From: an uncultured Candidatus Saccharibacteria bacterium
GTDB lineage: Bacteria; Patescibacteriota; Minisyncoccia; Phycocordibacterales; GCA-2401445
Direction: 5' to 3'
Assembly: GCA_964436015.1 (NCBI GenBank)
Contig: CAYTAR010000002.1
Location: forward strand, 9,521 to 73,520
Length of the DNA stretch: 64,000 bases
The notes beneath the pieces are model-generated. The model saw only the letters and a list, made by a program, of their open reading frames with translations. It made no database searches and was not told the DNA's origin. Of this stretch, positions 4,516-63,692 are shown piece by piece. Position 1 is the first letter of the stretch. Every line of letters begins with the position of its first letter. The position numbers and the translations under genes were made by a program.

Positions 4516-4539
4516 CTGTGGAAAGAGTGTTGAGTGTGT

Positions 4540-4710
4540 GGGGAAATTATTGTTAATAACTCGGTATAACTGTATCGGTTATACCCATAAAAATAATATA
4601 AGAAAAATACATACTCATTATTCCTATATCATACATATTTTTTCCCCACATATTTATTTATAAAACCTATGTATACCAACACTTAATTTACTAATCCACA
4701 TATCCCCATG
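4540..4710. promoter_or_regulatory. putative oriC / DnaA-box cluster in the AT-rich dnaA-dnaN spacer
   Basis: TGTGGGGAAA (4546-4555) and its inverse TTTCCCCACA (4642-4651), plus TAATCCACA (4692-4700, one mismatch to TTATCCACA), in a spacer of >70% AT. Confidence 0.4.
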
Positions 4711-4754
4711 TATAGTATTGGTATGAAATTAATTAATAAAAATAAACTACTAGT

Positions 4755-26990: not shown

Positions 26991-28175
26991 TTATTGCATA
27001 CCTTTTAAAGCACAATCAAGACCAAGAATAATATCTTTAGGATCTTCAAATCCGACTGACAGGCGAAAAAAACCATCAGTTATTCCCAACGATTCCCGAA
27101 TATCTTTTGGAATACTCCTATGACTCATGAGCGGGGGATAGGCAATTATTGTTTCCGGACTCGCCAAGCTCTCACCGTATACAATGGGGCTGTTTTTTCG
27201 CAATAAGTCAACGAATTTTTTAAGTACACGGTTGTTTTTATTTTTAAGGATGAATGACACAACACCACCATACCCTCCTTTGCTTTGCCTTTGTGCCACA
27301 GCGTGATTTGGATGAAAAGAGAGTCCGGGATAGAGTACTTTTTCTATGTGATTATTTCTTTCTAAAAATGTTGCCACAGTGAGCGCTGTTTCACTTACTC
27401 GCTTCCAGCGTAATTCAAGCGTTTTTACTTCTTGGAGGACACGGTAGCATTCATCAGGTGAGAGGATTGCACCCAGTGTGCGGTGTAAAAAAACGAGTTG
27501 TGCATGAAGCTTTTTATTCCGAGTAATAATCGCTCCTCCAATAATATCGTTGTGACCGGCAATATATTTACTTAAGCTATGAATTACAGTTTCTGCTCCG
27601 AATTCAAACGATTGTAGTGCGCACGGTGGAGAAAATGTTGCATCAACCACGAATGGAATTCCCGTTTCTTTAGATACTTTTGCAACAAGCGATAGGTCAA
27701 TGACATGCAGTGATGGGTTTGTTGGGGTTTCCACAAAAAAATATTTTGTAGAAGGCGTAATGCTGTTATGGATAGATTCTTCAGTGCTGAAATCAACACA
27801 ATCAAAGGTTATCCTGAAGCGCGAAAAGTACTGATCGAGTAAGCGAAATGTTCCGCCATATACTTCTTGGCAACAGAGTACGTGGTCACCTGGTGCGAGT
27901 GTAGAAAAAAAGGCTGTTTCGGCTGCGAGTCCTGATGAGTAGACGGTTGCATTACCTCCTCCTTCCAATTGAACCAGTTTTTCTTCAAGTTTTTGTCGTG
28001 TTGGATTTTTCCCACGAGAATACTGGAATTCACTTTCAATACCAAACTCCTTTTGCGCAAATGTTTTTGTTCGCACCAGTATAGGCGCAACCGCACCAGT
28101 TTCTTTGTCAGGCTTCTCTCCGCTGTGGACTAGTTTTGTTGAAAAGGACCACTCTTTTTTGTATCTATTCTTCAT
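26991..28175 (-). CDS. Cys/Met-metabolism PLP-dependent enzyme (MetB/MetC/MetY family)
   Basis: PLP-lysine motif SLSKYIAGHNDIIGGA. It is preceded by a SAM-I riboswitch, which suggests a methionine-biosynthesis role. Confidence 0.8.
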   Translation of the reverse strand: MKNRYKKEWSFSTKLVHSGEKPDKETGAVAPILVRTKTFAQKEFGIESEFQYSRGKNPTRQKLEEKLVQLEGGGNATVYSSGLAAETAFFSTLAPGDHVLCCQEVYGGTFRLLDQYFSRFRITFDCVDFSTEESIHNSITPSTKYFFVETPTNPSLHVIDLSLVAKVSKETGIPFVVDATFSPPCALQSFEFGAETVIHSLSKYIAGHNDIIGGAIITRNKKLHAQLVFLHRTLGAILSPDECYRVLQEVKTLELRWKRVSETALTVATFLERNNHIEKVLYPGLSFHPNHAVAQRQSKGGYGGVVSFILKNKNNRVLKKFVDLLRKNSPIVYGESLASPETIIAYPPLMSHRSIPKDIRESLGITDGFFRLSVGFEDPKDIILGLDCALKGMQ

Positions 28176-28211: not shown

Positions 28212-28352
28212 AGCTCTTCCGTAAAGAAGAGATTTTAAATCATATAGATATATTATCTTTCCCTTACGGGCTAGATTGAGCACTTACTTCTTACGAAGAG
28301 TTGCTGGCGGTTCATAGAGCTAGTTCTCTCCCCGCACTCTGGATAACTATTT
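28212..28352 (-). promoter_or_regulatory. SAM-I (S-box) riboswitch with terminator expression platform in the 5' leader of the Cys/Met PLP enzyme
   Basis: Minus strand reads TTATCCAGAGTGCGGGGAGAGAACTAGCTCTATGAACCGCCAGCAAC...GTGCTCAATCTAGC...AAAGATAA. Compare the S-box consensus TTATCAAGAGAGGTGGAGGGACTGGCCCGATGAAACCCGGCAACC...GGTGCCAATTCC...AAAGATGAG. Then CTCTTCtttacgGAAGAG + U-run. Confidence 0.7.
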
Positions 28353-48077: not shown

Positions 48078-48506
48078 ATGAAAAAAATGTCAGACAGATT
48101 CATAACACTCAAGGAAGCTGGTGAATTATCAGGATACAGTTCGGACTATATTGGTCAATTAATCCGAAAAGGAAAACTTCCAGGACAGCAGGTGTATTCA
48201 AACGTTGCCTGGGTAACGACACCTGAAGCTGTGCTTGAGTATATGGAGGGGAGTAAGAGAAAAACACAGAGAAACTCGGAAGATCTGTTATTGCGCATAT
48301 TGAGGGGTGCATACATGTGCGCACTCTGGTTAGTTATTGTGATAGGAGGAATGTTCAGTTTATTTCTGTTTTACATGACATCAGTAAGTATTGATGCACG
48401 ACTCCAGTCTGCTATTCAAACAGAAGTTGAAGAACGTATCGTTACTGAGTTTGCCCAAGATACGAATGAGCGTTTTGTTTCATTTTCTTCACACATATTG
48501 CAGTAA
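48078..48506 (+). CDS. membrane-tethered helix-turn-helix protein (excisionase/MerR-like HTH + TM)
   Basis: ITLKEAGELSGYSSDYIGQLIRKGKLPGQQV HTH, then TM LWLVIVIGGMFSLFLFYM. First gene of the surface-protein locus. Confidence 0.5.
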   Translation: MKKMSDRFITLKEAGELSGYSSDYIGQLIRKGKLPGQQVYSNVAWVTTPEAVLEYMEGSKRKTQRNSEDLLLRILRGAYMCALWLVIVIGGMFSLFLFYMTSVSIDARLQSAIQTEVEERIVTEFAQDTNERFVSFSSHILQ

Positions 48507-50447
48507 ATGATAATCGATAGACCAAAACAGCTGAAAACAGTAGAAGATGCTCTCACTATAAATATGAGAAGTTTTTCGGTGTATCGCATATTAAGTAATT
48601 CATTCAGAACAAGTTTTATGTATCGCGGGCTCGGGAGTCTTTTACTACTCTCGGTGTTAGCTCCCTCAGTGATTCCCGTTTTTGTATATGCTGACGAGAT
48701 ACCAGTAGCTACAGTAAGCACTTCAACCAAAGAGTCTATCGTGCAAGTGGACGTAGATCCTGTTGCTAAGGTTGATTCAAAAGCAGAAGAAACCATCGTT
48801 CCTGTAGATGATTCAGATGAAGGGGGTGTTGAGGAAAATGTGTCAGAAGAGAGTGGTGTTGAGATTAATGATTCTAGTATAGAACATGAGGAGATAGAAG
48901 AAGGTGATGTTAAGGAAAGTGTAATAGAGGAAGAAATCCAGCTGATAGAAATTGCAAGCTCAACGTTGTCTGTTGAGGATGTAAGTGCTACTAGTACCCC
49001 CGCAACCTCAACTCCAATAATAATGAATGAGGAGTCTCAAGTTGGTACTACTACAGTTAGTACTTCCACAACAACACTCGTAGCGAGTACAACAAAAAAT
49101 GAAATAGAAATTTCAGAGGATGAGGGAGTGGCAACAAGTTCTAATAAACTTACGGAAGAAGGTAATACTGCGGGCGCGAGCGGAACAAGCTCGCCCATGT
49201 TAACTGTTGATCCGGCAGACCTTATACCTCCTGATATTACTATTGTTGGCAATAACCCGGCGTTTGTGGCTGTTGGTGTGCAGTATGTTGATCAAGGAGT
49301 CCTTGTAAATGACAACAAAAGCAATAACTTGGGCCACACAATTCGTGTAAATGGTATAGAGGTTGATACGGTAACGCTTGATACAAGTACCACCAGTGAA
49401 TACGCAATAACTTATGTGGCGGTAGATCAAGATGGAAATACAGCAGTGGCAGTCCGAACGGTATTTGTTGGTATCGCAGAAAGTAGTATAGGGGAAGGCG
49501 TGTTAATGGAAAATGGTGTTGCGGGAGGAAGGGCTTCTTCAACTACAGATACCGTTGATGTGGTTTTTGAAGAAAACCATGATTTTGTACCCCAACAAAA
49601 TATTGAGTTTAATCTTTTGAATAAACATGTGTTTTCTGAATCTGATTGTGTGGTAGTGGGGAACGGTGAGTTTTACTGCGTAACCTCTGAGGATGCAAGA
49701 ACAAAGACAACAAACAACACTTCTCCAGTAGTGTTTGCAAAAAAATCAGACCAAGGGAATAAAGAAATATATTTCAATAATGGAGAATCACTTGTACAGA
49801 TCACTAACAATGACTTTGATGATGATCGACCCGTGTATGATGCAATTACTGGTATCATTGTGTGGCAATCACTCCGAGGCGATCGTTTGCAAATAGTATC
49901 CTACAATACCGTAACGGGAGTTGAGGTGGAGATTACTAATACTCCATATAACAACAGCAACCCTCATGTGCAGGGAACGACTGTGGTGTGGCAAGGGTGG
50001 GTAAATAATAACTGGGAAATATTTGTTGCTGATGCGACACGGAAAGCAGAAGACACTCTAGAGCCGGTAACGCGTAATGTGTGGAACGATATGTTTCCAC
50101 AGGTAAAGGGAGATATTGTCACCTGGCAGTCACGAGTAAATGATGCATGGAAAGTGTTTATCTATGATATCCGTACGAAAGAAATATCCGAGGTGGCTGT
50201 TCCTGCTGGGGGAAGTATTGAGAATCCCCGATTCGTTATTTTAGTTGAAAACAGACTTACGAATGGTGATGTAGAGACTTATGGGTATGACATTACTACG
50301 AAAGAAACATTTCCACTTGGTGCAGAGCGAAGGGCTACGCAAGAGATTCCAGAAAATCCGGCACAAACGGAGCCAACCGTGCTTCCTGTGGTGCAGGAGG
50401 TTAGAGCTCCGAAAGACGATGAGGGTGGAGTAGATGATACATTATGA
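48507..50447 (+). CDS. secreted surface protein with an acidic region, an Ig-like (DUF5011-type) domain and beta-propeller-like VxWQ repeats (signal peptide probably starts at nt 48618)
   Basis: MYRGLGSLLLLSVLAPSVIPVFVYA signal; DITIVGNNP...YVDQG Ig-like; repeated ...VVWQ...W.IF..D blades. Confidence 0.55.
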   Translation: MIIDRPKQLKTVEDALTINMRSFSVYRILSNSFRTSFMYRGLGSLLLLSVLAPSVIPVFVYADEIPVATVSTSTKESIVQVDVDPVAKVDSKAEETIVPVDDSDEGGVEENVSEESGVEINDSSIEHEEIEEGDVKESVIEEEIQLIEIASSTLSVEDVSATSTPATSTPIIMNEESQVGTTTVSTSTTTLVASTTKNEIEISEDEGVATSSNKLTEEGNTAGASGTSSPMLTVDPADLIPPDITIVGNNPAFVAVGVQYVDQGVLVNDNKSNNLGHTIRVNGIEVDTVTLDTSTTSEYAITYVAVDQDGNTAVAVRTVFVGIAESSIGEGVLMENGVAGGRASSTTDTVDVVFEENHDFVPQQNIEFNLLNKHVFSESDCVVVGNGEFYCVTSEDARTKTTNNTSPVVFAKKSDQGNKEIYFNNGESLVQITNNDFDDDRPVYDAITGIIVWQSLRGDRLQIVSYNTVTGVEVEITNTPYNNSNPHVQGTTVVWQGWVNNNWEIFVADATRKAEDTLEPVTRNVWNDMFPQVKGDIVTWQSRVNDAWKVFIYDIRTKEISEVAVPAGGSIENPRFVILVENRLTNGDVETYGYDITTKETFPLGAERRATQEIPENPAQTEPTVLPVVQEVRAPKDDEGGVDDTL

Positions 50448-53400
50448 CCCTACGCGCATTGAGAAGAATTTGGGTGAATAAAAAAAAATGGGGAGCACGC
50501 ACGGTGGCGGTTTTTATTGTGTTCACTTTTTTGTTTTCTGATATCTCACAGTTTATTCGTATACCATGGGGTACTATTTTCAGAGCTGAAGCTGCACCTG
50601 TTTTGATTGAGGATACACTCACCATAGTAGATGACTCCATGTTGAATACTTCACCCACAACCGTTTTTATCAGTGATACGGTTGGGTATACTTTTTTTGT
50701 AGATAATGGAAATGCGTGTAGGTATGCCTCAACAACAGATGCGGGGGCTACATGGAGTCTGGCATACACCGTTGACTCGGTTAATACGACAGATTGTTTT
50801 CGTGTCGCGGTGTGGTATGACCAATGGACTCCTGGAGATGATACCGGTACGGTGATACATATTGCAACTCTCGATACGGGCGATGATGATATTTTCTATA
50901 CATCACTTAATACCGTAACTAATCAACTTTCCACAACAGTGATCGCGACAAATCAGGCGGGTACATTTGCTGCGGGTACTAACTATCATTCAATTACGAA
51001 AGGTGGTGATGGAAACTTGTACATGGCTGCAAATGATGCATCGGACAGTTGGATAGTTCGGTGTACGGGCACCTGTACGAGTGCGGGTAATTGGTCAGAA
51101 ATTGCTAATCCGTACGAATTACAGAATGATTGGCCACTTCTTGTGCCGCTTTTGAATGGAAACATAATGACCATACGAATGGATTTATCAGGAAATGATT
51201 ATGACTATAACATTTGGAATGGTTCTATATGGAGTGGATGGACAACTATCTTAACAACCGCGGGTGAGAATGCAACTTTTGATGCTCATTTTGGGGCAAC
51301 GATAGATAAGAGAACAGGGGATGTGTACTTTGTTGGGGTAACTGATAATGCGACGTTGGGAACCGATGACGATATTCGTACCGCATACTACAACCACCAT
51401 AACGGTACGTGGAGTGTGATGGGTAATGTGCTTACTAATGATACAAAAGGTATACGAGACGCTAAAATATTTTTTGACCAGAATTCTGGAGATGTGTATG
51501 TTACCTATTCCGCACTCACCACTCCAAATAGTGCGACAACTGGTAATGTGTACTATAAATATTCAACTGACGGTATGGTTTCGTGGAGCAGTGAGGTACA
51601 GGTAAATACCGTCTCAGGCAACTTGTTTGGTGCGGGACACAATAACTTAATGAGTACTGAGCGTGCATATGTTACATGGAAAAACATATCGGGCGATGAT
51701 TTGTTTGGAGAGACTGTAGTTAATCTTTCTCCGCCTGCGCTTGAGCAGTACTCATATCGATGGTACGAATCTGCGACAAGTACTGCTCCAGGTGCACCTC
51801 TTGCAAATGCAAACACGACCGCAACGTCAACAGAGAGGGGTACGCCATTTCGTCTCCGTATCGCTCTCGATATAGACGATTCAAAAATTGCTTCCAGTTC
51901 TCTCTCTTTTAAACTTCAATATGCAGAGCGGAGTGGGATTTGCGATATTTCTTTTACCGGGGAAACGTACACTGATGTTCTTACTTCAAGTGGGGCAGTG
52001 AGATTTTATGATAATACTGGTGTTGCCTCTGGGGTACAAGCGACGGTGTCTGCGAACGAACCTATTCCGAGTGAAGGTTCTTTTTCTTACCAGTCATATA
52101 TTGAAGGTGGGACATTTACTAATACGTATGGAAGTATCGCAACGAGTAGCGACGGCCTATGGGATTTTTCTTTAATCGATATTTCTTCACCTGAAGAAAC
52201 CCGGTACTGCTTCAGAGTGGTGTATGCGGACGGTAGCACGCTTGAATCATACTCTGTAATTCCTGAACTTATTACCCCATCGCGTCCACCAATTGTTACT
52301 CAGGCGCATTTTCATTTCAGAAATGATAACGGAGGAGAGGATGATGCAACGTCAGCTACAGGAGGGGTTGAGGATACAAATCTTTTTGGTGTATTTCCAA
52401 CCACCACAATACGTATGCGTATTGGAGTTGAAAATAGAGGGTTAAGCACATCAAGTCCAATTCAGTATCGTCTTGAGTACGCGGAAAAAGGCGCGAGTTG
52501 TGAAGTAAGTACAGGCTGGACTGATGTTGGAAGTTCTGGAGGAGCTTTCAATATGAATCCAATTGCAAACTTAACAGAGGGAGGAGATACTACAGATATT
52601 GCGATTGCGTTAGGAGGTGTGAGTACTAATGAATCTTATTTCGTAAGTCCAAACGGTGGTGTTCGAGATACAAATTCACAGACCAGTGCCATAACGCTTG
52701 GTCCTGATGAGTATACTGACCTTGAGTATTCAATTACCGCGACAGGTGACTCAAATGAGGGAACAACATACTGTTTTAGGATAACCGATGCAGGGTCGGT
52801 GATTGATAGTTATAGTGTGTATCCACAGATAACTATGGCTGCTTCAGTAGAAGTATCAACTATCGGTAGTCAGGTGACATCAGTCAATGCAGGAACTAAT
52901 AATTTTTATGTGGGTGGAGCTTTTGTGATAACTGATGGAATAGGAGGGCATTCTGTTACGAGTATTACCATTGCCGAACAGGGAACCGTAGATGCTGGAA
53001 GTAATATAGAAAACATACGCTTATACTACGATCTTGATACGACATTTCCATATGATTGTAGTAGTGAGTCATATGGGGGAGGTGAGTTGCAGTATGGCGC
53101 CACAAGTACCAGTTTTTCCTCCGCAGATGGGACCGCAACTTTTAATGGGTCAGTAGGCATCGATACTGATCAGTCATTATGTTTGTATGTAGTGCTTGAT
53201 ATTGCGAGTGGAGCGAGTGACGGCGAGACTCTTGAAATAGAAATTCCAAATGCAAGTACTGATGTTGTGGTAAGTGATAATCCATCAATTTCACCAACTA
53301 CCTTTGTTCGTTTAGCGGATACAACAACCATAAATAGCTCTGTATTAGATATGACTCATTTCCATTTTAGAAATAATGACGGAGGGGAGGGTGATGCAAC

Positions 53401-56400
53401 GTCAGCTACAGGAGGAGTTGAGGATACGCCGGTGACTGATTTGAGAAAAAACACACCAATACGTCTAAGGTTGCAGGTCGCTAATAGCGGAGGAGTGGGG
53501 GCATCTTCCTTGGCACTTCGTCTTGAGTATGGGGTGAAGGTGAGTTCGTGTAGCGCGGTTTCTGTATGGCAAGATGTCGGTGCCACTGAGGGGGATTGGG
53601 ACATGTATGATTCAACATTTCTTACTGATGGAGACAATACTACGGATATCGTACTTGGTATTGGTGGGGTGAGTAATGAGGGGGTAGATTTTCTTGATGT
53701 GAATGGTGGGGTAAAGGATACTTCCTCTCAAACTGCTCCATTTACGTTGGCTCCAAATGAGTATGTAGAACTTGAGTATTCAGTGTTCGCAACTGCTAGT
53801 TCAACAGCAGAGGGTGAATACTGTTTTCGGGTAACGAACCAAGGCACTCCACTTAATGTGTATTCAGTGTATGCAGAAGTAAGTATTGCTCCAAATCAAG
53901 ATTTTTTCATACAACGCGGTTTTGAGATTGTGAGTGGTACCAGTACTATTTTATACGCGGGAATAGATTACACTCCGCCACGGTTGGGTGGTCGTGCGTT
54001 TGTACGTATCACTAATACGCATCACACAGGCGCAGGGGACGATGATGGGGGAGGAACTCAGAATGCTGATGATGTAACCGCGTACATACTGAATCCTCAG
54101 GATATCGCTACCAGTATTACCATTGCGCGACCAGCGGCAGCGACAATAAATACTGGAGTAGCGTGGGAAATAGTTGAGTATCAAGGCTACCCAGGTGGAG
54201 GTAATGAAATGGTCGTACGCGAACAGGGAAATATATCCATGACAGGTTTATTTGCTACCACATCACCAATAAGTGGGGTGAGTAGCGACAGTGATGTAGT
54301 CGTGTTTATTACTGGAGCAATGACTCCTGATACTGGTACCGCTGATTACAATATGATGCAGGCAGTATCATCGTGGGATGTTCAAAGTCAGAGTGCGGTG
54401 TTTGAGCGAGGTGAGTCAGGAGACACTATCACTCTCAGTTATGCGGTGGTTGAATTTACTGGAAGACATTGGCGTGTGCAACGAGTTGCGCATAATTACT
54501 CGTCTGCTGTTGGCGCAGAGACGGAGACAATACCCTCTTCACTTAACAGTGTTTCTCGTGCATTTTTGCATACTCAGAAACTTGCTGGTGTGGGTGAGCA
54601 GGGCCTGGACGAATTTGGGCATACGGTTTGGATTTCTGGGGTTAATGAAATTTCATTTCAATTACAAAGCGGTGTAACCACACCAACCGCACACCGCTCG
54701 GTTGCATGGGTGATTGAGAATACGCAAGTTAATGGAACTCCAATGAATGTAATACAGTCAAGCGGTACTCAAAGTGGAGGAGCGGAGCCCAGCGTTGCAT
54801 CAATTGATATTGGCACTACGGTGGTTAGTATGGATACAACTTCTGTATTTACTAATTCTCGAGTGAATGGCACAAATACTGCATTCCCAAGACCGATACT
54901 CGCCGTGTATTTAATTTCCCGTACACAGTATCAATTTTGGATTAGTGATACAGGTGGGACGGTAACCTATCAAACTGAGGTGGTTGAGTGGCCAACTGCG
55001 CCAAGAAAGATAACCCAAAACTATTACCGAATATACGTGAATCAAGACACACTACTTCCGTCTGATGTGTGGCCGCAAGGAGCATCATCAATCGGGGAAA
55101 ATACAGTACTTTCACTCAATGATGTGCCTATTGATAGTGGAGATGTTATTCGTATACGTATGTCGGTGTTGGTTGAACAGGGGAATTTACCGGTGAACTA
55201 TCAATCATTTCGTTTGCAGTTTGGTGAACGCGAAACAACATGTTCCGCGGTAAGTGTGTGGCGCGATGTAGGACAAGTGGGAAGCACAACTGCATTATGG
55301 CGCGGATACAATAACGGCAGCGTCACAGATGGGGCAACGCTCTCAAGCGATCCTCCAAATGGAGGAGATTTGGTACTATCAGTTTCTGATAGAGCTGGTA
55401 CGTATGAGGAGTCAAATAATTCCGCGGTGAATCCATTTCCGGTATTCGCGGGAGAAGATGTTGAGTATGATTGGGTTGTTGAAAATAATGGAGCTTTGGA
55501 ATTGACACCGTACTGTTTCCGTATGGTTGAAGCAAATGGTTTGATGCTTGATGACTACGCTTACCACCCAACAGTATTTACCGCTGGGTATGAGGCGGTG
55601 AGCGAAGACTGGCGTTGGTTTGATGATGCTGAAAATGAGACTCCTCTATCAGCTCTTTCTCCAGAAAATTCTGCACCTATTGGAGTAGACTATGATACTA
55701 CCGTACAGTTGAGAGTGTTACTACATGAAATTGCAGGAAAAACTGGACCTCAATTAAAACTCCGTCTTCAGTTTGATGAGTCGGCAAGTTTTACCAATCC
55801 GCAGTTCGTCTCGAATGCGCTTGATTGTGCAGAAGGACTATCTCTCTGGTGTTATGCAGACGGTGGAGGAGTTGATAATGCAACCATAACGACCGCAGTT
55901 TTGACCAATGCAGATTCGTGCGTATCTGAAGTTGGTGATGGATGCGGAACGCACAATGAGCTTGCTACAACGAGTAGTTTATTTACTCATCAACCCAATG
56001 CAAACACAGAGTTTGCGTTTACCATTCGACATGTAGGAGCGCGTGCGAATACAGTCTATTTCTTCAGGATATATGATGTAACCAATGATAGATATGTGAG
56101 TGCAAGCACTACAAAAACGTACCCAAGCTTAGTTACTGAGGGCGCTGGACTTACGTTTACATTAAGTGGTGTTTCTTCGGGTGTAATAACTGAAGGTATC
56201 ACCACTGATAATGCAACAACTCCATACCATATTTCATTTGGCACGCTTCCTTTAAATACGGAGGTTGAAGTGGCGCAACGCCTCACCGTCACCACTAACG
56301 CAACCGAAGGATACCAAGTATTTATGTTTGCAAGGCAAGGATTGTTGTATGATACGGAAGAAATTACTCCAATTACTTCACTTAACTCAAACCCTTTGGG

Positions 56401-56665
56401 GTGGTCTCTTGGGTGCGATACTGGTTCTGTAACTGGTTGTTTCGGATATCATACAGGAGACGATACTCTTGCAGGTGGGTCGGTTAGATTTTCAGCAGAC
56501 GATACGTACGCTCGTTTGACTACGTCACCCCAGGAGATTATTTACAGCTCGCGTCCGGTTATAAACGAATCAACTGACGTGATCTTTAAAACGTGGGTAA
56601 ATGCAGATCAGCCTGGAGGGCTTTATGAGAGTAGTGTGGTGTATATTATTGTCCCTGTATTTTAA
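50444..56665 (+). CDS. giant (2073 aa) Thr/Ser/Gly-rich cell-surface repeat protein
   Basis: N-terminal TM/signal, then at least four ~350-aa repeats each containing C...YCFR(V/I/M) and HFHFRN(D/N)(N/D)GGE(D/G)DATSATGGVEDT. Confidence 0.7.
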   Translation: MTLRALRRIWVNKKKWGARTVAVFIVFTFLFSDISQFIRIPWGTIFRAEAAPVLIEDTLTIVDDSMLNTSPTTVFISDTVGYTFFVDNGNACRYASTTDAGATWSLAYTVDSVNTTDCFRVAVWYDQWTPGDDTGTVIHIATLDTGDDDIFYTSLNTVTNQLSTTVIATNQAGTFAAGTNYHSITKGGDGNLYMAANDASDSWIVRCTGTCTSAGNWSEIANPYELQNDWPLLVPLLNGNIMTIRMDLSGNDYDYNIWNGSIWSGWTTILTTAGENATFDAHFGATIDKRTGDVYFVGVTDNATLGTDDDIRTAYYNHHNGTWSVMGNVLTNDTKGIRDAKIFFDQNSGDVYVTYSALTTPNSATTGNVYYKYSTDGMVSWSSEVQVNTVSGNLFGAGHNNLMSTERAYVTWKNISGDDLFGETVVNLSPPALEQYSYRWYESATSTAPGAPLANANTTATSTERGTPFRLRIALDIDDSKIASSSLSFKLQYAERSGICDISFTGETYTDVLTSSGAVRFYDNTGVASGVQATVSANEPIPSEGSFSYQSYIEGGTFTNTYGSIATSSDGLWDFSLIDISSPEETRYCFRVVYADGSTLESYSVIPELITPSRPPIVTQAHFHFRNDNGGEDDATSATGGVEDTNLFGVFPTTTIRMRIGVENRGLSTSSPIQYRLEYAEKGASCEVSTGWTDVGSSGGAFNMNPIANLTEGGDTTDIAIALGGVSTNESYFVSPNGGVRDTNSQTSAITLGPDEYTDLEYSITATGDSNEGTTYCFRITDAGSVIDSYSVYPQITMAASVEVSTIGSQVTSVNAGTNNFYVGGAFVITDGIGGHSVTSITIAEQGTVDAGSNIENIRLYYDLDTTFPYDCSSESYGGGELQYGATSTSFSSADGTATFNGSVGIDTDQSLCLYVVLDIASGASDGETLEIEIPNASTDVVVSDNPSISPTTFVRLADTTTINSSVLDMTHFHFRNNDGGEGDATSATGGVEDTPVTDLRKNTPIRLRLQVANSGGVGASSLALRLEYGVKVSSCSAVSVWQDVGATEGDWDMYDSTFLTDGDNTTDIVLGIGGVSNEGVDFLDVNGGVKDTSSQTAPFTLAPNEYVELEYSVFATASSTAEGEYCFRVTNQGTPLNVYSVYAEVSIAPNQDFFIQRGFEIVSGTSTILYAGIDYTPPRLGGRAFVRITNTHHTGAGDDDGGGTQNADDVTAYILNPQDIATSITIARPAAATINTGVAWEIVEYQGYPGGGNEMVVREQGNISMTGLFATTSPISGVSSDSDVVVFITGAMTPDTGTADYNMMQAVSSWDVQSQSAVFERGESGDTITLSYAVVEFTGRHWRVQRVAHNYSSAVGAETETIPSSLNSVSRAFLHTQKLAGVGEQGLDEFGHTVWISGVNEISFQLQSGVTTPTAHRSVAWVIENTQVNGTPMNVIQSSGTQSGGAEPSVASIDIGTTVVSMDTTSVFTNSRVNGTNTAFPRPILAVYLISRTQYQFWISDTGGTVTYQTEVVEWPTAPRKITQNYYRIYVNQDTLLPSDVWPQGASSIGENTVLSLNDVPIDSGDVIRIRMSVLVEQGNLPVNYQSFRLQFGERETTCSAVSVWRDVGQVGSTTALWRGYNNGSVTDGATLSSDPPNGGDLVLSVSDRAGTYEESNNSAVNPFPVFAGEDVEYDWVVENNGALELTPYCFRMVEANGLMLDDYAYHPTVFTAGYEAVSEDWRWFDDAENETPLSALSPENSAPIGVDYDTTVQLRVLLHEIAGKTGPQLKLRLQFDESASFTNPQFVSNALDCAEGLSLWCYADGGGVDNATITTAVLTNADSCVSEVGDGCGTHNELATTSSLFTHQPNANTEFAFTIRHVGARANTVYFFRIYDVTNDRYVSASTTKTYPSLVTEGAGLTFTLSGVSSGVITEGITTDNATTPYHISFGTLPLNTEVEVAQRLTVTTNATEGYQVFMFARQGLLYDTEEITPITSLNSNPLGWSLGCDTGSVTGCFGYHTGDDTLAGGSVRFSADDTYARLTTSPQEIIYSSRPVINESTDVIFKTWVNADQPGGLYESSVVYIIVPVF

Positions 56666-56673
56666 TACTATAT

Positions 56674-57690
56674 ATGTCTATTTGGTATACTAGAGGTATG
56701 AGATTATTTGTTCTAGGATTCATATGTTTTGTGAGTGCATTTTTTATTACGCCAGAAATTGCATTTGCAAAGTACATACAAGTATCACCTATTGTAATAA
56801 ATAAAGATTTGCAAGCTCGTGATATTATCCGTGAACAAGTGGTACTGAAGAACACCTCTCCTGCAAAGTTAAATGTGTATACATTTGTTAACAATGTTAC
56901 TTCTGGAACGGAGGGGGGTATTGAGGCATTTCTTGATTATCAACAATCAGAAAAACAAAAGTCGTTGGCAAACTGGATTGAGATTTCACGCGGAGTGATT
57001 GAATTGATGCCAGGAGAAGAAAAAGAAATTGAATTTATTATTAAAGTGCACCATGAGGCTACTCCAGGCGATTATCATGCATTGATTTCTTTCGGAACTG
57101 GAACCAATAGAGATGAGGCTGAACAGCGCCTTACACGAGAGTCATCGGTGATGGTTGTTGGGTCAGTAGTGAAAAATACAAGAGAGCTCCTTCAGGTGAA
57201 AAAATTTACCGCGGGGAATTTATTTTTTTCAGGAACTGATGCGGAGTTCACATACACCCTTCAGAATAATGGTGATGAGGTAATTATCCCTGATGGAGAA
57301 ATCTTGCTTTATGATAGGCGTGGAATTGAGATTGGTGCAATGCGCGTTAACGGACAGGGAGAGAGTATCTTGCCAGGGGAAGAAAAGGAGTTTGTTTCAA
57401 CATGGAGCGGTGAATATAGTCTCGGTCGGCACAAGGCGTACTTGAGTGCAGTGTATGGTGCACAGAAGAAAAACTTGACTGATACCACCTACTTTTTTAT
57501 GTTGCCATGGAAGCAGTTATTACTGTTGTTTACTGTACTTATGTTCTTTACGGTGTATGTTATGCATGTGATTCACGATAAATTTTTTCAAAAGAGAAAA
57601 AAACAGGTTCAATTCAACCGTGTATCTCGTCCAGTAACGCCTCCGGTCCCAGGGGTTGGTGTGATTAATCTCAAACAATATGAGGATTAA
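56674..57690 (+). CDS. cell-surface protein with signal peptide and C-terminal TM anchor (DUF916/DUF3324-like architecture), paralog 1
   Basis: Signal MRLFVLGFICFVSAFFITPEIAFA, a beta-rich ectodomain, and C-terminal TM LLLLFTVLMFFTVYVMHVI + KR tail. Confidence 0.55.
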   Translation: MSIWYTRGMRLFVLGFICFVSAFFITPEIAFAKYIQVSPIVINKDLQARDIIREQVVLKNTSPAKLNVYTFVNNVTSGTEGGIEAFLDYQQSEKQKSLANWIEISRGVIELMPGEEKEIEFIIKVHHEATPGDYHALISFGTGTNRDEAEQRLTRESSVMVVGSVVKNTRELLQVKKFTAGNLFFSGTDAEFTYTLQNNGDEVIIPDGEILLYDRRGIEIGAMRVNGQGESILPGEEKEFVSTWSGEYSLGRHKAYLSAVYGAQKKNLTDTTYFFMLPWKQLLLLFTVLMFFTVYVMHVIHDKFFQKRKKQVQFNRVSRPVTPPVPGVGVINLKQYED

Positions 57691-59365
57691 GTCGGCACAC
57701 AACAGTTGGTTTATAAGGGTAGGAATTGTATTAGTTTTAGTGTGTAGTATTGGATTTTTTTCTTCTTACACGCACGCCCAGGCACCCGCGTCGCTCTCAT
57801 TAAGTGTCACCCCTCCTTTGTTCCAACTCACTACTGCTCCAGGAGAGTATTGGGCGAGCAGTATAAAAGTCATCAATGCCAATTCATATCCATTAACCAT
57901 TGTTGCTGAAGTGGTTAGGTTTGATGCGAGTGGGGAAAGTGGTAATGCTAAATTTTTACCTGTACTTGGCACAGAAGGTGAAGGTAGCACACTTGCGGAT
58001 TGGATTACTCTAGAAGAAATTGAGTTAACTATTCCACCTGAGCAAAGTGCGGTAGTTCCATTTTCAGTACGTATACCACAGGACGCTCCTCCAGGAGGGC
58101 ACTATGCGGCGATACTCATTGGGAATAAATCTGTAAAAGAAGCGGGAGCAGGTCCGCAAGTCGGAGTGTCATCTTTTGTCTCCTCTTTGTTATTTGTTCG
58201 TATTGCGGGTGATGTTGTTGAAACAGGTTCTATTAGAGAATTTTCAGCAGATTCTCTTTTTTATCAAAAGCCAGAAACTTCTTTTTCATTACGGTTTGAA
58301 AATACAGGGAATGTTCACTTGTTGCCACAAGGTGAAATCACCATTTACAACATGTGGGGAAAGGAGAGAGGAGTAATTCCGATAAATCAAAAAACAGATT
58401 TTGGAAACGTACTTCCTCGGTCCATACGAAAATTTGATTTTACTTGGGCGGGGGAGCAAAATCCTCTTGAAGTAGGAAGGTTTTCAGCTGTAGCGATTCT
58501 TACCTATGGGCAGGAGGAAAGAAAAAGTGTGTATGCAAATACGTACTTTTGGGTGATACCCGTGATACCGGTGCTGATTGTCCTCGCTTCAATTTTTGGA
58601 ATTATTGTTTTTGTATCATGGATGGTTAAGTTGTATATCAGACGCGCTCTTGAGCTCCGAGGTATATACATGAATCCTGATGATTTTTTGTCTCCACATA
58701 TGAACACGTCAAAGGTGGATATGAAGATGCTGGTAAACCCTGTTGTGGAAGGAGTTATGGATTTACGTTCAGCTACTTTTCGTGATTCTCTTAGACATAA
58801 GAAAGATATTGTAGAGCCTGCCTCTATGACATATAAAGATTTCTTTAAGAAGTACAAGCGTTTCTTTGTGAGTGTGGCAGGACTCACAATGGTTGTGTTT
58901 ATTTTTATGTTTTTCTTTACTCACGTTCTCGTTCCCGAGCGTGCATTTGATATTACCTTGAATAAGGAAGATGGTGAGGTATCTATTAGTTCGGAGGAGC
59001 TCATTAAGGATAAGCTAGATGAGCAGAATAATTATTTTAATTCAAGTCAAGAAGAGGTTTCTTCTAATATTGCTTCTGGCGAGGTTCAAAGGATTACTAT
59101 TGAATTATTAAATAACACGGGAATTCCAGGCAGGGGTGCTGAGATTGCAGTACTACTTGAACAGAATGGATACAGGATTCAGAAGGTCGGTAATAGTAAT
59201 GAAGAAATGGAAGAAAATCGGGTGTACGGTAATTTTACTGATCCACTTATTGTAGAAGTCATTCAAGATGTTGAAAATATTACCGATAAAGTTTTTACGC
59301 AGATTGATTCAGGGTACACTCAAGGTCAAGCAACAAACACTCTTGTTTTTATTATTTCAAAGTAG
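57680..59365 (+). CDS. cell-surface protein, paralog 2 (ectodomain + TM + extra C-terminal domain)
   Basis: Paralogous to 56674 and 62210: LFVRIAGDVVETGSIREFSAD vs SMKIGGDVIETARIREFSSD. Has an internal TM VIPVIPVLIVLASIFGIIVFV. Confidence 0.55.
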   Translation: MRIKSAHNSWFIRVGIVLVLVCSIGFFSSYTHAQAPASLSLSVTPPLFQLTTAPGEYWASSIKVINANSYPLTIVAEVVRFDASGESGNAKFLPVLGTEGEGSTLADWITLEEIELTIPPEQSAVVPFSVRIPQDAPPGGHYAAILIGNKSVKEAGAGPQVGVSSFVSSLLFVRIAGDVVETGSIREFSADSLFYQKPETSFSLRFENTGNVHLLPQGEITIYNMWGKERGVIPINQKTDFGNVLPRSIRKFDFTWAGEQNPLEVGRFSAVAILTYGQEERKSVYANTYFWVIPVIPVLIVLASIFGIIVFVSWMVKLYIRRALELRGIYMNPDDFLSPHMNTSKVDMKMLVNPVVEGVMDLRSATFRDSLRHKKDIVEPASMTYKDFFKKYKRFFVSVAGLTMVVFIFMFFFTHVLVPERAFDITLNKEDGEVSISSEELIKDKLDEQNNYFNSSQEEVSSNIASGEVQRITIELLNNTGIPGRGAEIAVLLEQNGYRIQKVGNSNEEMEENRVYGNFTDPLIVEVIQDVENITDKVFTQIDSGYTQGQATNTLVFIISK

Positions 59366-59564: not shown

Positions 59565-60704
59565 ATGAATAGCACATACGTATTTGAGCACATCAAGACC
59601 CATAAGTATCTAGCACTCATTGTGTTAGCGGGACTCTTAATGTGGTCAGTCGGCTTGCCTGCGTGGGCACCCATGGCGCAAGCAGCAGCACTCACCAACT
59701 TCAGTGATACACTCACTGATTCGGACGTGAGTGCACCATCTAATCACACGATTGCCTATACGACACCAAACGGTGTCTCGGCAGGAGAGACGATTGTGAT
59801 TACGTTTCCTGCAGGGTTTAACTTAAGTGATTTGTCGTTTAACGACATTGACTTATATGCAGGATCGGAACGAACACTTGGGTCTTCACCTTCAGGTGCA
59901 ACGTGGGGGGTTGCGACAACGTCAACCACTATTACGTTCACTTCAGGAACAGACACTATTGCGTCAAGTACTGCAGTCGTGATTGAGATAGGTACACATG
60001 CAACAGCTGGTGCAACGGGGGATACACAGATTATTAATCCAGGGTCACCTGGCACGCAAATTATCAACGTGTCATCGGGATCAGGAATTGATTCTGCGGA
60101 TACCCGCGTCTACATCATTGATGATGTTGTGGTCACTGCTTCAGTTAACACCACCTTCCTCTTCTCCATCACTGGAGTAGCGAGTGGTGCATCAGTTAAC
60201 GGAAGTCCAACAACCACTGCAGATACAACCACATCAACATCGCTTCCGTTCGGAACACTTAACGCGCTTCAGTCAAAAACTCTTGCGCAAGATCTTTCAG
60301 TAACCACTAACGCAGCAAACGGCTTCGTAGTAACAGTACAGCAAGATCAAAATCTTCGTTCCGCAACGAATGCAGATATTGATGGGTTCATTGATGGGGC
60401 GTATACAAACACTCCAGCTGCATGGGTACAACCATCAGGGTCCCTTGGACAAGAGTGGACATACGGTCACTGGGGTTTAACATCAGAAGATGCTGATTTA
60501 AACACTGATGAATTCGGATCCGATTTGTGGGTTGCAGCGTCAACTACACCTCGGCAAGTCTTCTCACACAATGCACCGTCAAATGGTACAACACCAAACA
60601 GTGGTTCTACCCGAGTCGGTTTCCAGATTGAAATTACTTCACTTCAGGAAGCTGGTACGGACTACACGAACACACTGACGTACATTGCAACGCCGACGTT
60701 CTAG
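59565..60704 (+). CDS. secreted surface protein, WxL-like C-terminal domain, paralog A
   Basis: Signal peptide. The C-terminal 201 aa are identical to those of the next gene. The end LTYIATPTF recalls the terminal motif of WxL domains. Confidence 0.55.
   Translation: MNSTYVFEHIKTHKYLALIVLAGLLMWSVGLPAWAPMAQAAALTNFSDTLTDSDVSAPSNHTIAYTTPNGVSAGETIVITFPAGFNLSDLSFNDIDLYAGSERTLGSSPSGATWGVATTSTTITFTSGTDTIASSTAVVIEIGTHATAGATGDTQIINPGSPGTQIINVSSGSGIDSADTRVYIIDDVVVTASVNTTFLFSITGVASGASVNGSPTTTADTTTSTSLPFGTLNALQSKTLAQDLSVTTNAANGFVVTVQQDQNLRSATNADIDGFIDGAYTNTPAAWVQPSGSLGQEWTYGHWGLTSEDADLNTDEFGSDLWVAASTTPRQVFSHNAPSNGTTPNSGSTRVGFQIEITSLQEAGTDYTNTLTYIATPTF
60101..60704 (+). repeat. 604-bp block identical to 61491-62094 (3' halves of adjacent paralogous surface-protein genes)
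   Basis: Spot checks at the start (tacccgcgtctacatcattgatgatgttgtgg), at 60121/61511 and at the end (...cgccgacgttctag) give a constant offset of 1390; no mismatch was seen, but not every base was compared. Confidence 0.9.
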
Positions 60705-60942: not shown

Positions 60943-62094
60943 ATGAGTACATATTTTATTTTACACCATATGCGAGGAGGCAAGGCGGTAGGAGCAGTGC
61001 TCCTAATCGCGCTTCTTGCGTGGTCAGTCGGTGCGCCGGCATGGATGAATGTTGCACAAGCAGCAGCACTCACCAACTTCAGTGATACACTCACTGATTC
61101 TGATGTGGGGGCGTTAAGTAACCACACAATTGCGTTCACTACTCCAAATGGGGTTGATGCAGGACAGACTATTACTGTTACCTTCCCAGGAGGTTTTGGT
61201 CTTGGGTCTATAACTGAGGATGATGTTGACATTGATAGTGCAGGAACTCCGCTCACTACTGCAGCGGATTGTTCGGGAAGTGAGGAGGCTGGGGTTGGTA
61301 TTTCAGGACAAATTATTACGATTGATATTTGCTCCGGAGATGGAGGGGACATTGCGTCTTCTACTGCGGTGGTAATTAGAATTGGAACGAATGCGGTTGA
61401 TAGTGGAACAGGAACAAACCAAATTACAAACCACGCAACTCCAGGTACATATATTATTGCAGTTGGAGGGACAATGCAGGATTCAGGTTCTACCCGCGTC
61501 TACATCATTGATGATGTTGTGGTCACTGCTTCAGTTAACACCACCTTCCTCTTCTCCATCACTGGAGTAGCGAGTGGTGCATCAGTTAACGGAAGTCCAA
61601 CAACCACTGCAGATACAACCACATCAACATCGCTTCCGTTCGGAACACTTAACGCGCTTCAGTCAAAAACTCTTGCGCAAGATCTTTCAGTAACCACTAA
61701 CGCAGCAAACGGCTTCGTAGTAACAGTACAGCAAGATCAAAATCTTCGTTCCGCAACGAATGCAGATATTGATGGGTTCATTGATGGGGCGTATACAAAC
61801 ACTCCAGCTGCATGGGTACAACCATCAGGGTCCCTTGGACAAGAGTGGACATACGGTCACTGGGGTTTAACATCAGAAGATGCTGATTTAAACACTGATG
61901 AATTCGGATCCGATTTGTGGGTTGCAGCGTCAACTACACCTCGGCAAGTCTTCTCACACAATGCACCGTCAAATGGTACAACACCAAACAGTGGTTCTAC
62001 CCGAGTCGGTTTCCAGATTGAAATTACTTCACTTCAGGAAGCTGGTACGGACTACACGAACACACTGACGTACATTGCAACGCCGACGTTCTAG
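60943..62094 (+). CDS. secreted surface protein, paralog B (3' 604 bp identical to 60101-60704)
   Basis: N-terminal ~90 aa conserved, middle divergent, 61491-62094 nt-identical to paralog A. Confidence 0.55.
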   Translation: MSTYFILHHMRGGKAVGAVLLIALLAWSVGAPAWMNVAQAAALTNFSDTLTDSDVGALSNHTIAFTTPNGVDAGQTITVTFPGGFGLGSITEDDVDIDSAGTPLTTAADCSGSEEAGVGISGQIITIDICSGDGGDIASSTAVVIRIGTNAVDSGTGTNQITNHATPGTYIIAVGGTMQDSGSTRVYIIDDVVVTASVNTTFLFSITGVASGASVNGSPTTTADTTTSTSLPFGTLNALQSKTLAQDLSVTTNAANGFVVTVQQDQNLRSATNADIDGFIDGAYTNTPAAWVQPSGSLGQEWTYGHWGLTSEDADLNTDEFGSDLWVAASTTPRQVFSHNAPSNGTTPNSGSTRVGFQIEITSLQEAGTDYTNTLTYIATPTF

Positions 62095-62121
62095 TGCGCT
62101 TATATACAAAACTATATACAA

Positions 62122-62155
62122 GAATTACACCCGCGAATGCGGGTGTAATTCTTTT
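62122..62155 (+). terminator. terminator after surface paralog B
   Basis: GAATTACACCCGCgaatGCGGGTGTAATTCTTTTG. Confidence 0.75.
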
Positions 62156-62209
62156 GCGAGGACTGAAGAGAGTGGTATTATTGATGTGTTACTAACCAAT
62201 ACTACGTTC

Positions 62210-63289
62210 ATGACATTTATACTACGAAACGATCGCACACTATTCAATATACTATTATTTTTTGTACTGAGTATTATTGGGCTTGCTTGCTTGCCCACTT
62301 CAGTGTTTGGGCAGTCAAGCTCAGGTATTAGAGTGCAGCCTTCGTTTATTGAAGAGGCGGTTAATCCGGGGGATACGTACAGTGAAATACTTCAGATAAA
62401 AAATGAGAGTGATGTTGAGGAAACATACTATGTAAGTGTGAGGAATATAAAAGGATTAACTGGTAATGATAATGCTCCAGTGTTTGCAGATGAAGGTGAA
62501 GTCACTGGGCTTGAAGTTGCTTCATGGGTTACTCTTTCAGCAGACAGTGCGACCGTTCTGCCTGGTGAAACCGCACAGATTCCTTTTAGTGTTGTGGTAC
62601 CGAAAGATGCGTCTCCGGGGAGTCATATAGGAGGAATATTTGTGACACGGACCCCTCCACGACTACGTGAGACTGGAGCAGGAGTGGGTATTCAAGTAGT
62701 CAGTATTCTTAGTATGAAAATAGGGGGAGATGTAATTGAAACTGCGCGTATCAGAGAGTTTTCTTCTGATAAAAACATATACAGTACCCCGAAAGCAGAA
62801 TTTACCGTAAGTGTAGAAAATGAGGGAAATATTCTGATTAGACCACAAGGGTTTATAGAAATAACTAATATGTTTGGCGAGCGGGTTGCTCAGCTTAAGA
62901 TTAATGAACGAGCAGGTGCGGTGTTACCAAAAGCGGAACGTAGATTTTCAGTGGAGTGGGAGGGGGATAGTCTCTCTTTTGGAAGATATCAAGTACATGC
63001 AGGTCTGGTGTTTGGAGATTATGGAAGACAGAATATTGAAAGTAATTTATTTATCTGGGTTCTTCCTATGAAAATTATCACGCCTTTTCTTGGCGGACTG
63101 CTTTTCCTTGTGTTTGTAATTTATATCAGTATTCGGATACATGTCAGAAATAAGTTACGTACTGTAGAGAGAACTCATGCACGATTTGTTCATGATGAGG
63201 CGCCGTTGTCAAAATTGACTTTCATTGCTGTCGCAGTACTTGCGTTTACAATTCTTTTCCTGCTAGGAGTGTTTATCTTTTTCGCATAA
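62210..63289 (+). CDS. cell-surface protein, paralog 3 (start trimmed to the MTFILRNDRT signal peptide)
   Basis: Same family as 56674 and 57680. Two C-terminal TM helices. An upstream terminator at 62122-62155 argues against the longer ORF-track start. Confidence 0.5.
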   Translation: MTFILRNDRTLFNILLFFVLSIIGLACLPTSVFGQSSSGIRVQPSFIEEAVNPGDTYSEILQIKNESDVEETYYVSVRNIKGLTGNDNAPVFADEGEVTGLEVASWVTLSADSATVLPGETAQIPFSVVVPKDASPGSHIGGIFVTRTPPRLRETGAGVGIQVVSILSMKIGGDVIETARIREFSSDKNIYSTPKAEFTVSVENEGNILIRPQGFIEITNMFGERVAQLKINERAGAVLPKAERRFSVEWEGDSLSFGRYQVHAGLVFGDYGRQNIESNLFIWVLPMKIITPFLGGLLFLVFVIYISIRIHVRNKLRTVERTHARFVHDEAPLSKLTFIAVAVLAFTILFLLGVFIFFA

Positions 63290-63290
63290 A

Positions 63291-63692
63291 ATGAGACGAA
63301 AGAGTAACAAAATAGAACATAATATCAGGTATGCACTAGCGATTGGAGCGACCGTGCTGTCGCTTACCTCCCTTGTGTATCGGGTTGATACAAGCATGCC
63401 AGGAGCGTCTACTTTGGTGGGAAATGTAGTTGGTGTTACTGCTCAGATTCCCCCGAATGAATTAAGTAGACTCGCACAACAGTTTGATGAAAAAGATAAG
63501 GAATTGAGTGCTCGCGAAGCTGAAATTGCGGATCGTGAGCGAGCGCTCAATGCACTACTTCGTAAAGGGAATGAGAGGGGTGTGATTGCAAATTATGCTT
63601 TTGCGGGTGCGCTTCTTCTTCTCTTTATTCTTGTAGGAATTAATTTCTACCAAGATTGGAAAGGAAGAAAAATTCCTAGACAGAGTGTATGA
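63291..63692 (+). CDS. small membrane protein with a coiled-coil region
   Basis: 133 aa; N- and C-terminal TM helices around a charged helical segment. Confidence 0.4.
   Translation: MRRKSNKIEHNIRYALAIGATVLSLTSLVYRVDTSMPGASTLVGNVVGVTAQIPPNELSRLAQQFDEKDKELSAREAEIADRERALNALLRKGNERGVIANYAFAGALLLLFILVGINFYQDWKGRKIPRQSV

Follow-up and report, generated by a model that had tools for sequence, protein, structure and literature searches.

By what means do the Paceibacteria (Parcubacteria), which count among the most abundant of bacteria and also among the least well understood, recognise and hold other cells? To our knowledge this is not known, and the question is raised by a locus in the 64,000-nucleotide stretch of Paceibacteria DNA analysed here (the window), where a single uninterrupted open reading frame (ORF) at 50444-56665, stop codon included, encodes a giant protein of 2073 residues on the forward strand. 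The initial annotation described this product as an extracellular, beta-rich surface protein built of internal repeats of about 350 residues, either a filamentous adhesin or S-layer-like. In the reading that is favoured here, and which we hold to be reasonably probable, the giant is a secreted modular adhesin docked by donor-strand complementation through a pilin-type C-terminal domain (CTD), preferably at the tip of a fibre of the Pam type, or else directly on membrane-anchored partners. From the comparisons presented below we infer Sec export and donor-strand exchange, as well as a position at the tip and adhesion to a glycan or a host cell.

The C-terminal domain and its proposed role

The interpretation of the giant is decided by its last 183 residues (1891-2073; 56114-56662). 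This CTD and the C-terminal domain of a 379-residue pilin-like protein encoded 3 kilobases (kb) downstream align from one end to the other (BLASTP, 27% identity over 215 residues, E 3e-6), while comparison with the pilin profile by hhalign gave a probability of 99.7% and E 3.4e-25 over 171 columns, the match beginning exactly past the pilin linker. NCBIfam models of the Pam system include NF058581 and NF058579, and the first of these, CPR_Pam_pilin_C, was matched by the CTD over positions 4-148 of 148 with E 2e-5 and 24.7 bits, the curated cutoff being 55. The same model was matched in full length by all 28 ortholog CTDs (best E 1.2e-11), with every score below that cutoff, and the model of the tip pilin PamT was also touched by six of the 28. 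An AlphaFold2 (AF2) model of the CTD is all-beta, with a predicted local distance difference test (pLDDT) value of 87.9, and its top Foldseek matches in the PDB were nearly all donor-strand fibre subunits, headed by the pilin domain of PapGII at rank 1 and including the tip adhesins CupB6 and CsuE, with CsuA/B, FimA/G/H, PapA and TasA as further matches; the structural alignments carry 7-13% sequence identity and the PDB matches included no Pam structure. None of the 28 CTDs matched Pfam WxL (PF13731) at E up to 1; W109 is conserved, the x-L after it is not, and a dual W-x-L motif is not conserved either. On the basis of these sequence and model comparisons, the CTD is most likely an incomplete-immunoglobulin (Ig) pilin-type domain of the Pam pilus kind, and it is proposed as the docking domain of the giant, where it would act as a donor-strand acceptor.

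The Pam system belongs to the candidate phyla radiation (CPR) and comprises the pilins PamA and PamB, the chaperones PamC and PamD, the tip pilin PamT and the anchor PamR (Troman et al., bioRxiv 10.64898/2026.03.03.709456). According to the same work, each of its pilins begins with an N-terminal sandwich, passes a linker strand on to the following subunit and ends in a CTD of the truncated-Ig type, its chaperones are PapD-like with a C-terminal transmembrane (TM) helix, PamT is a tip pilin made of the CTD only, and the terminator is TM-anchored; the system was reported mainly in Saccharimonadia and Microgenomatia, neither adhesins nor Paceibacteria being mentioned. The locus in the window has in common with it a CTD, probably of the truncated-Ig kind, that an NCBIfam Pam model detects below its cutoff, neighbouring pilins composed of N-terminal domain, linker and CTD, chaperone candidates with a signal peptide and a C-terminal TM helix, the lack of an usher or other envelope-spanning machine, and the restriction to CPR. 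Nevertheless, the differences are considerable, since the CTD that stands bare in PamT is fused here to about 1890 residues of other domains, the lineage is Paceibacteria, the hidden Markov model scores lie under the curated cutoff, the chaperone-like proteins gave matches to DUF916 but to none of the NCBIfam Pam models, and the anchor candidates are proteins with a pilin N-terminal domain and a TM helix or dockerin repeats instead of RbmA-like ones.

In the pilins, the segment preceding the CTD is a conserved alternating-hydrophobic stretch, D-D-V-x-V-T-A-x-V, present in 12 of 12 pilins, with V188, V190, T191 and A192 invariant in 26; by its pattern, and by analogy with the N-terminal extensions of Fim and Pap pilins, this linker looks like a donor strand. 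In the giant and in every minimal form of its family (one D domain, described below, plus the CTD) the same position is taken by xSYPSLVTEG, the last strand of a D domain, to be compared with YPQITMAA in strand 179-182 of the D2 model. The donor linker motif is thus absent from the giant, whose profile homology to the pilins starts past the linker, and therefore it is not a rod pilin of the PamA/B/E type and fits an acceptor-only subunit of the tip type. A further kind of part is encoded at the far end of pilin cassettes, namely donor-only proteins which carry the pilin N-domain and a linker-like strand, have no CTD, and continue through spacer domains into a TM helix or dockerin-like repeats. 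The latter ending was observed in loci L003, L005, L023, L082 and L083, with a faint cohesin match nearby in L082, and hints that in some fibres a cohesin-dockerin tether may stand in place of the TM helix. From this grammar of parts, i.e. acceptor only (giant and minimal forms), donor plus acceptor (pilins) and donor only with an anchor, we infer a polar donor-strand fibre that would bear the giant at its distal tip.

In the mechanism proposed, the N-terminal 1890 residues or so, with the Nprop, Ins and Mid domains and five D domains, would serve for binding and as a spacer. Once the protein is exported, the groove of the CTD would first be filled by a strand from a co-encoded, membrane-anchored DUF916-like chaperone protein, and this strand would subsequently be swapped for the pilin linker strand DDVVVTASV. 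Because it has an acceptor domain and no donor linker, the giant would be confined to the distal end of the fibre as a tip adhesin like FimH or PapG, and donor-only proteins with a TM helix would close and tether the fibre. Such a reading is supported by the neighbouring operon, with its three chaperone-like proteins and two pilins, and by the syntenic loci, which add the donor-only proteins. The working principle is that of the chaperone-usher tip adhesins (FimH, PapG, CsuE, CupB6), which also join an N-terminal receptor-binding part to a C-terminal pilin domain, have no donor strand and form the distal subunit, and among which the structural matches of the CTD are found. However, there is no outer membrane here, neither the 48-64 kb interval of the window nor the related loci gave an usher-like gene, the chaperones are anchored in the membrane, the multi-domain adhesin part is larger by a factor of about 10, and sequence similarity is nil at the 7-13% of the structural alignments. 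The resemblance is one of working principle and not of membership.

Module layout, repeats and the D domain

The giant starts with a signal peptide, read from the sequence (residues 1-50; 50444-50593), with a basic n-region, a hydrophobic core and an AEA/AP site; when the N-termini of orthologs were compared, A50 was invariant, A51 was at least 90% conserved and the AEA/A site was kept. Next comes Nprop (residues 53-423; 50600-51712), a BNR/Asp-box-like beta-propeller in which an Asp-box-like TTDAGATW is visible and which matches Pfam BNR_2 weakly (E 0.0014, 18.5 bits, under the cutoff of 31.4); the same model was matched by eight of 24 orthologs (best E 4.8e-6), and PF13088 (BNR_2) is precomputed on several relatives. 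The remaining layout, established by self-BLAST of the D domains, complemented by domain mapping for D1, D4 and D5 and by an AF2 model for D2, consists of the divergent D1 (residues 424-611; 51713-52276; YRWYE...YCFRV), D2 (residues 617-805; 52292-52858; HFHFRNDNGGEDDATSATGGVEDT ... YCFRI), the 161-residue Ins, which is unrelated to D and has a conserved Cys pair C872/C913 (residues 806-966; 52859-53341), D3 (residues 967-1151; 53342-53896; HFHFRNNDGGEGDATSATGGVEDT ... YCFRV), the conserved 367-residue Mid (residues 1152-1518; 53897-54997), D4 (residues 1519-1720; 54998-55603; ...YCFRM) and the degenerate D5 with four conserved Cys (residues 1723-1890; 55610-56113; WRWFDD...YFFRI), whose last strand, YPSLVTEG, directly adjoins the CTD. 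Apart from the weak BNR_2 match, Pfam searches of the whole giant, of nine separate segments and of 24 orthologs gave no match, so that D, Ins and Mid are all without a Pfam model; Mid was also without a PDB sequence match in this protein and its orthologs, and PDB sequence profile searches with the CTD, D domain and full-length alignments gave none.

Part of the initial description of the gene holds. The 2073-residue ORF is intact and carries HFHFRN at residues 622 and 972 (nucleotides 52307 and 53357) and YCFR at residues 588, 776, 1126 and 1690 (YFFR, a degenerate form, at 1872); its composition is rich in T, S, G and N, as had been claimed, and low in K (T 11.9%, S 9.7%, G 9.3%, N 5.7%, K 1.0%), and an extracellular beta-rich adhesin is consistent with the signal peptide, the invariant Cys pair of D1-D4 and the all-beta models of both modelled domains. 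The repeat unit, on the other hand, had to be redefined. Whole-protein self-BLAST gave just the diagonal, and repeats were mapped by windowed BLAST of the giant against a masked copy of itself, which paired D2 with D3 at E 1e-23 to 1e-27 (BLASTP, about 47% identity) and the other D copies at E 1e-5 to 1e-10 (24-38% identity). Internal similarity is thus far above chance, as annotated, but the unit is a domain of about 185 residues, D, present in five copies, and the 350 residues (1050 nucleotides) between the HFHFRN motifs are a spacing only, reflecting the succession of D2, the unrelated Ins and D3, with no Ins-like segment after D3.

In the comparison with orthologs, the D copies of the giant are 16-46% identical and older than the divergence of the orthologs. 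D2 and D3 share 46% identity with each other, less than either shares with ortholog domains (51-55%), and their similarity at the DNA level is limited to 71 nucleotides at 90% identity (52307-52377 versus 53357-53427). For these reasons their duplication is old and not an assembly artefact, a recent repeat expansion is equally ruled out, and slippage-type variation in repeat number is unlikely, given the confinement of DNA similarity to 71 nucleotides. As far as such comparisons go, the D2/D3 pair is old and stable, and neither of the two outcomes against which the annotation had warned, an artefactual repeat or a gene split into pseudogene fragments, was found.

The AF2 model of D2 is an all-beta sandwich (pLDDT 95.3) to which Foldseek found no close structure in the PDB, all matches being generic Ig-like sandwiches (cohesin, RhoGDI, RbmA, TRAP) with E of at least 5e-3; comparison of the fold with viral structures yielded no tail-fibre link. 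The D profile retrieved 2444 clusters at 50% identity among 1.84 billion representatives, 1146 of them with E no higher than 1e-10; single proteins hold as many as 21 copies. An alignment of 244 instances has ten columns at least 80% identical (D, E, R of an R-x-R strand, L, C, W, E, and Y, F and R of Y-C-F-R). The first Cys is invariant in all five D classes; that of Y-C-F-R is invariant in D1-D4, whereas in D5 Phe stands in its place and three further Cys are conserved. Present in 182 of 182 instances checked, the D1-D4 pair probably forms a disulfide. The possibility that the N-terminal domain of the pilins is itself a D domain was rejected (hhalign probability 0.3%).

Three giant proteins retrieved with D (P0160, P0236 and P0256, one of them from Chloroflexota) contain 11-13 copies and start with a type IV prepilin N-methylation motif, and therefore D appears to be reused as pilus cargo carried by type IV pilin fusions; judged by these occurrences, it would thus be shared by the cargo proteins of two unrelated pilus types. 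Modular type IV pilins such as PilB of Streptococcus sanguinis (PMC8179133) likewise graft bulky functional domains onto a pilin module, although the giant carries its module, one of the donor-strand type, at the C-terminus and has neither an N-terminal type IV pilin helix nor an N_methyl motif.

Neighbouring genes, related loci and the weighing of alternatives

Start and stop codons overlap or almost touch across 48078-59365, and all genes of the locus described here lie on the forward strand; scans for promoters and terminators gave sites no more frequent than chance. The first gene (48078-48506) encodes a membrane-anchored helix-turn-helix protein of 142 residues, with weak HTH_17/excisionase matches and one TM segment (residues 70-90), a homolog of which lies upstream in many related loci. 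It is followed by P646 (48507-50447), a secreted protein of 646 residues with an Ig-like domain (Bact_surface_Ig-like, E 6.7e-10) and beta-propeller repeats (TIGR04275, E 1e-11), whose stop overlaps the start of the giant gene.

Downstream of the giant, a chaperone-like protein of 338 residues (56674-57690) has a signal peptide, two beta domains and a C-terminal TM helix (281-302), and matches WxLIP_PGBD (DUF916) with E 0.0016 and 18.9 bits, the cutoff being 27.3. Its 561-residue paralog (57680-59365) has two TM segments, 287-321 and 394-421, and ends in a LytR_C domain (E 1.2e-5), which is extracellular; within this ORF, on the reverse strand, ARAGORN called a tRNA-Pyl (anticodon cta; 57968-58043) which was not reported by Rfam at the gathering threshold and is probably a false positive. 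The third chaperone-like protein, listed as an ORF of 404 residues (62075-63289), is homologous to the other two and has a signal peptide (residues 54-80) and C-terminal TM segments. The listed TTG start overlaps the end of the preceding pilin gene, the signal peptide begins near residue 46 and the ortholog in locus L004 has 362 residues; the true start is probably near 62210. The three proteins are mutually homologous, each with a signal peptide, a beta-rich ectodomain of about 250 residues and a C-terminal TM segment. Among 17 members of the family, eight match WxLIP_PGBD (best E 1.3e-6), seven match fn3_5 and none matches DUF3324; a search of PDB sequences with the single 338-residue protein gave no match, and a homolog search with the family profile retrieved CPR proteins alone and no Firmicutes WxLIP.

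The 379-residue pilin-like protein (59565-60704) consists of a signal peptide, an N-terminal beta domain, the linker DDVVVTASV and the CTD, with a match to CPR_Pam_pilin_C at E 0.0014, and its 383-residue paralog (60943-62094) matches the same model weakly. Over their last 604 nucleotides, which cover linker and CTD, the two genes are 100% identical (60101-60704 and 61491-62094), their N-terminal halves having diverged, with 76% identity over a 144-nucleotide stretch. Such a pattern points to gene conversion, or else to a recombination substrate through which the exposed N-domain would be swapped. A membrane protein of 133 residues with a coiled-coil region (63291-63692) is a conserved member of the pilin cassette, with homologs in related cassettes.

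All 62 near-full-length relatives of the giant come from metagenome-assembled genomes of Patescibacteria/Paceibacteria, and a pattern scan over genomes taken one per species detected a CTD relative in at least 119 Patescibacteria species, whose genomes are labelled Paceibacterota, Parcubacteria, Kaiser-, Nomura-, Harrison-, Yanofsky-, Sung- and Jorgensenbacteria. In the closest locus, L004 (Ca. Paceibacterota), the protein is 65% identical and the gene order is the same. Domain mapping on the relatives gave a common architecture of signal peptide, Nprop, two Ins-D units of about 350 residues, Mid, D4, D5 and CTD, so that most orthologs do have a genuine tandem of 350-residue units, the first Ins being replaced by D1 in the giant and its closest relative. 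Module number varies among species-level relatives, some having two propellers (about 2450 residues) and others one Ins-D unit (about 1700 residues), and the genome scan extends the CTD-bearing proteins from minimal forms of 380-460 residues to a largest one of 3357. The half formed by Mid, D4, D5 and CTD is constant in the large forms; Mid is present in all relatives of about 1500 residues or more and absent from the minimal forms. In L001, L006, L011 and L016, two giant CTD-bearing genes stand in tandem (e.g. 2146 and 2060 residues) before one chaperone-like pair.

Neighbourhoods were counted in 80 related loci, of which 43 with at least 9 kb downstream served for the downstream neighbours. 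A chaperone-like gene lies downstream of the CTD gene in 40 of these 43, and no more than 300 nucleotides away in 52 of 64; a P646-like gene lies upstream of giants in 29 of 32 loci and of minimal forms in one of eight. The pilin cassette, made up of pilin, chaperone, 133-residue protein and a protein with the pilin N-domain, elsewhere stands alone or follows a minimal 440-residue D+CTD protein, and therefore the window presents two cassettes side by side, a less common arrangement. The pilin family, uniform in length and with no fewer than 1741 clusters, is highly abundant among Paceibacteria. Genes for formylglycine-generating-enzyme-like (FGE-sulfatase) proteins were observed inside the pilin cassettes of L003 (21572-22411) and L082 (12765-14468), and by analogy these enzymes might modify fibre proteins; Ser356 of PamA bears an unexplained modification (Troman et al., bioRxiv 10.64898/2026.03.03.709456).

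Several observations weigh against a giant docked at the tip of a Pam-type fibre. The NCBIfam score of the CTD lies under the curated cutoff (24.7 versus 55 bits) and its Foldseek matches are weak (E 3e-3 to 5e-2, TM-score 0.26-0.58). The profile of the chaperone-like family found no solved PapD, FimC or WxLIP (Enterococcus faecium) in the PDB sequence search, and its members matched no NCBIfam Pam model. Furthermore, the conserved YPSLVTEG strand before the CTD might conceivably be a donor itself. Finally, pilin genes occur within 10 kb downstream in 10 of the 43 loci, and in four of 27 for giants of at least 1900 residues, so that the link to a fibre may not be general. Much the same evidence bears on an arrangement without any pilus shaft, rather unlikely in our judgement and yet to be taken seriously, in which the giant would be held on the cell directly by the two downstream membrane-anchored DUF916-like proteins, one of them permanently filling the CTD groove, as in the WxL/Csc clusters of Firmicutes (PMC10599100, PMC9772566). 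The chaperone-like pair is indeed the tightest partner of the CTD gene, in the proportions given above, DUF916/WxLIP_PGBD matches were obtained for eight of 17 members of its family and weakly in L083, and the extracellular LytR_C domain of the 561-residue paralog could bind the wall. The WxL literature follows the same logic, WxLIP being composed of DUF916, DUF3324 and TM, with an AF2-predicted insertion of a strand from DUF916 into the WxL docking domain, and these clusters also combine a large protein having N-terminal binding domains and a C-terminal docking domain with small proteins having the same docking domain and a protein of about 340 residues with a signal peptide, two Ig-like domains and a TM segment. 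Nevertheless, WxL is thought to bind peptidoglycan rather than to form fibres, no WxL match was obtained in the 28 ortholog CTDs, and the chaperone-like profile missed the solved WxLIP by sequence. Moreover, a complete pilin cassette comes directly after that of the giant both in the window and in the closest relative, and since the abundant pilin cassettes can stand alone, giant-bearing genomes with no nearby pilin may encode their pilins at another site.

The two other explanations concern the nature of the giant more than its placement. That it is a generic filamentous adhesin or S-layer-like protein of tandem 350-residue repeats, strain-variable in number, would agree with the composition, the all-beta models and the differing module number among species-level relatives; it is very improbable in view of the 185-residue unit, of copies which predate the divergence of the orthologs and of a DNA similarity too short for slippage. 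No SLH or other S-layer domain was found by Pfam or NCBIfam in this protein and 24 orthologs, the C-terminus being of the pilin type instead, so that of the original proposal a modular multi-domain adhesin survives, while the proposal leaves out the Pam-pilin-type CTD and the donor-strand fibre operon in which the gene lies. It is also improbable, if less so, that the giant is primarily an enzyme, its BNR-like propeller acting as a sialidase or glycosidase on the host envelope and the rest as a carrier, a role compatible with either mode of anchoring. The weak BNR_2 matches and the Asp-box-like motifs speak for such an activity, whereas the score of this protein below the Pfam cutoff, the failure of the family profile to match any sialidase structure and the existence of minimal family members with no propeller speak against it. 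The docked adhesin, probably at the tip of a fibre, remains the reading preferred here.

Significance and genomic context

Both the fibre system and the principle of the tip adhesin are already known. In the literature searched, a pilin-type CTD fused to about 1900 residues of mostly unannotated domains was not described, and no description was found of a Pam-type system across Paceibacteria, of a modular series from 380 to 3357 residues or of the D family. The giant and its assembly genes represent a concrete and conserved candidate for the attachment of Paceibacteria to other cells, which would carry a fibre system first described in 2026 into a further large class of CPR bacteria and suggest its tip component. 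In addition, a widespread unannotated D family and a modular family of putative tip proteins are defined, whose variable N-terminal parts can be compared with host range, and a link that can be tested is proposed from CPR fibres to the WxL clusters found in enterococci and lactic acid bacteria, themselves poorly understood. As a speculation, and an unlikely one, Pam fibres and WxL/Csc clusters could both descend from a single ancient donor-strand system of single-membrane bacteria, assisted by chaperones and working with no usher, in which a C-terminal pilin-type tag would dock cargo of 380 to about 3350 residues onto fibres or membrane anchors; the giant would then be the host-recognition head of Paceibacteria, and D, common to it and to type IV pilin fusions, a module of general use in pilus cargo.

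The window is cellular DNA, with genes for DnaA, DnaN, a class A penicillin-binding protein, tyrosyl-tRNA synthetase, PolA, a Mur ligase and a PilB-like ATPase, seven tRNAs and a riboswitch. Since dnaA and dnaN are found at its left end (3169-5855) together with a rising cumulative GC skew, it lies near the replication origin, and the PilB-like T2SSE ATPase (12860-14578) implies that the genome also has type IV pilus machinery. A 645-residue ORF on the forward strand (40070-42007) is without a Pfam match at E up to 1e-5. On the reverse strand, an S-adenosylmethionine (SAM, S-box) riboswitch (28250-28349, 64 bits) is located upstream of a gene for a pyridoxal phosphate-dependent enzyme of Cys/Met metabolism (26991-28175).

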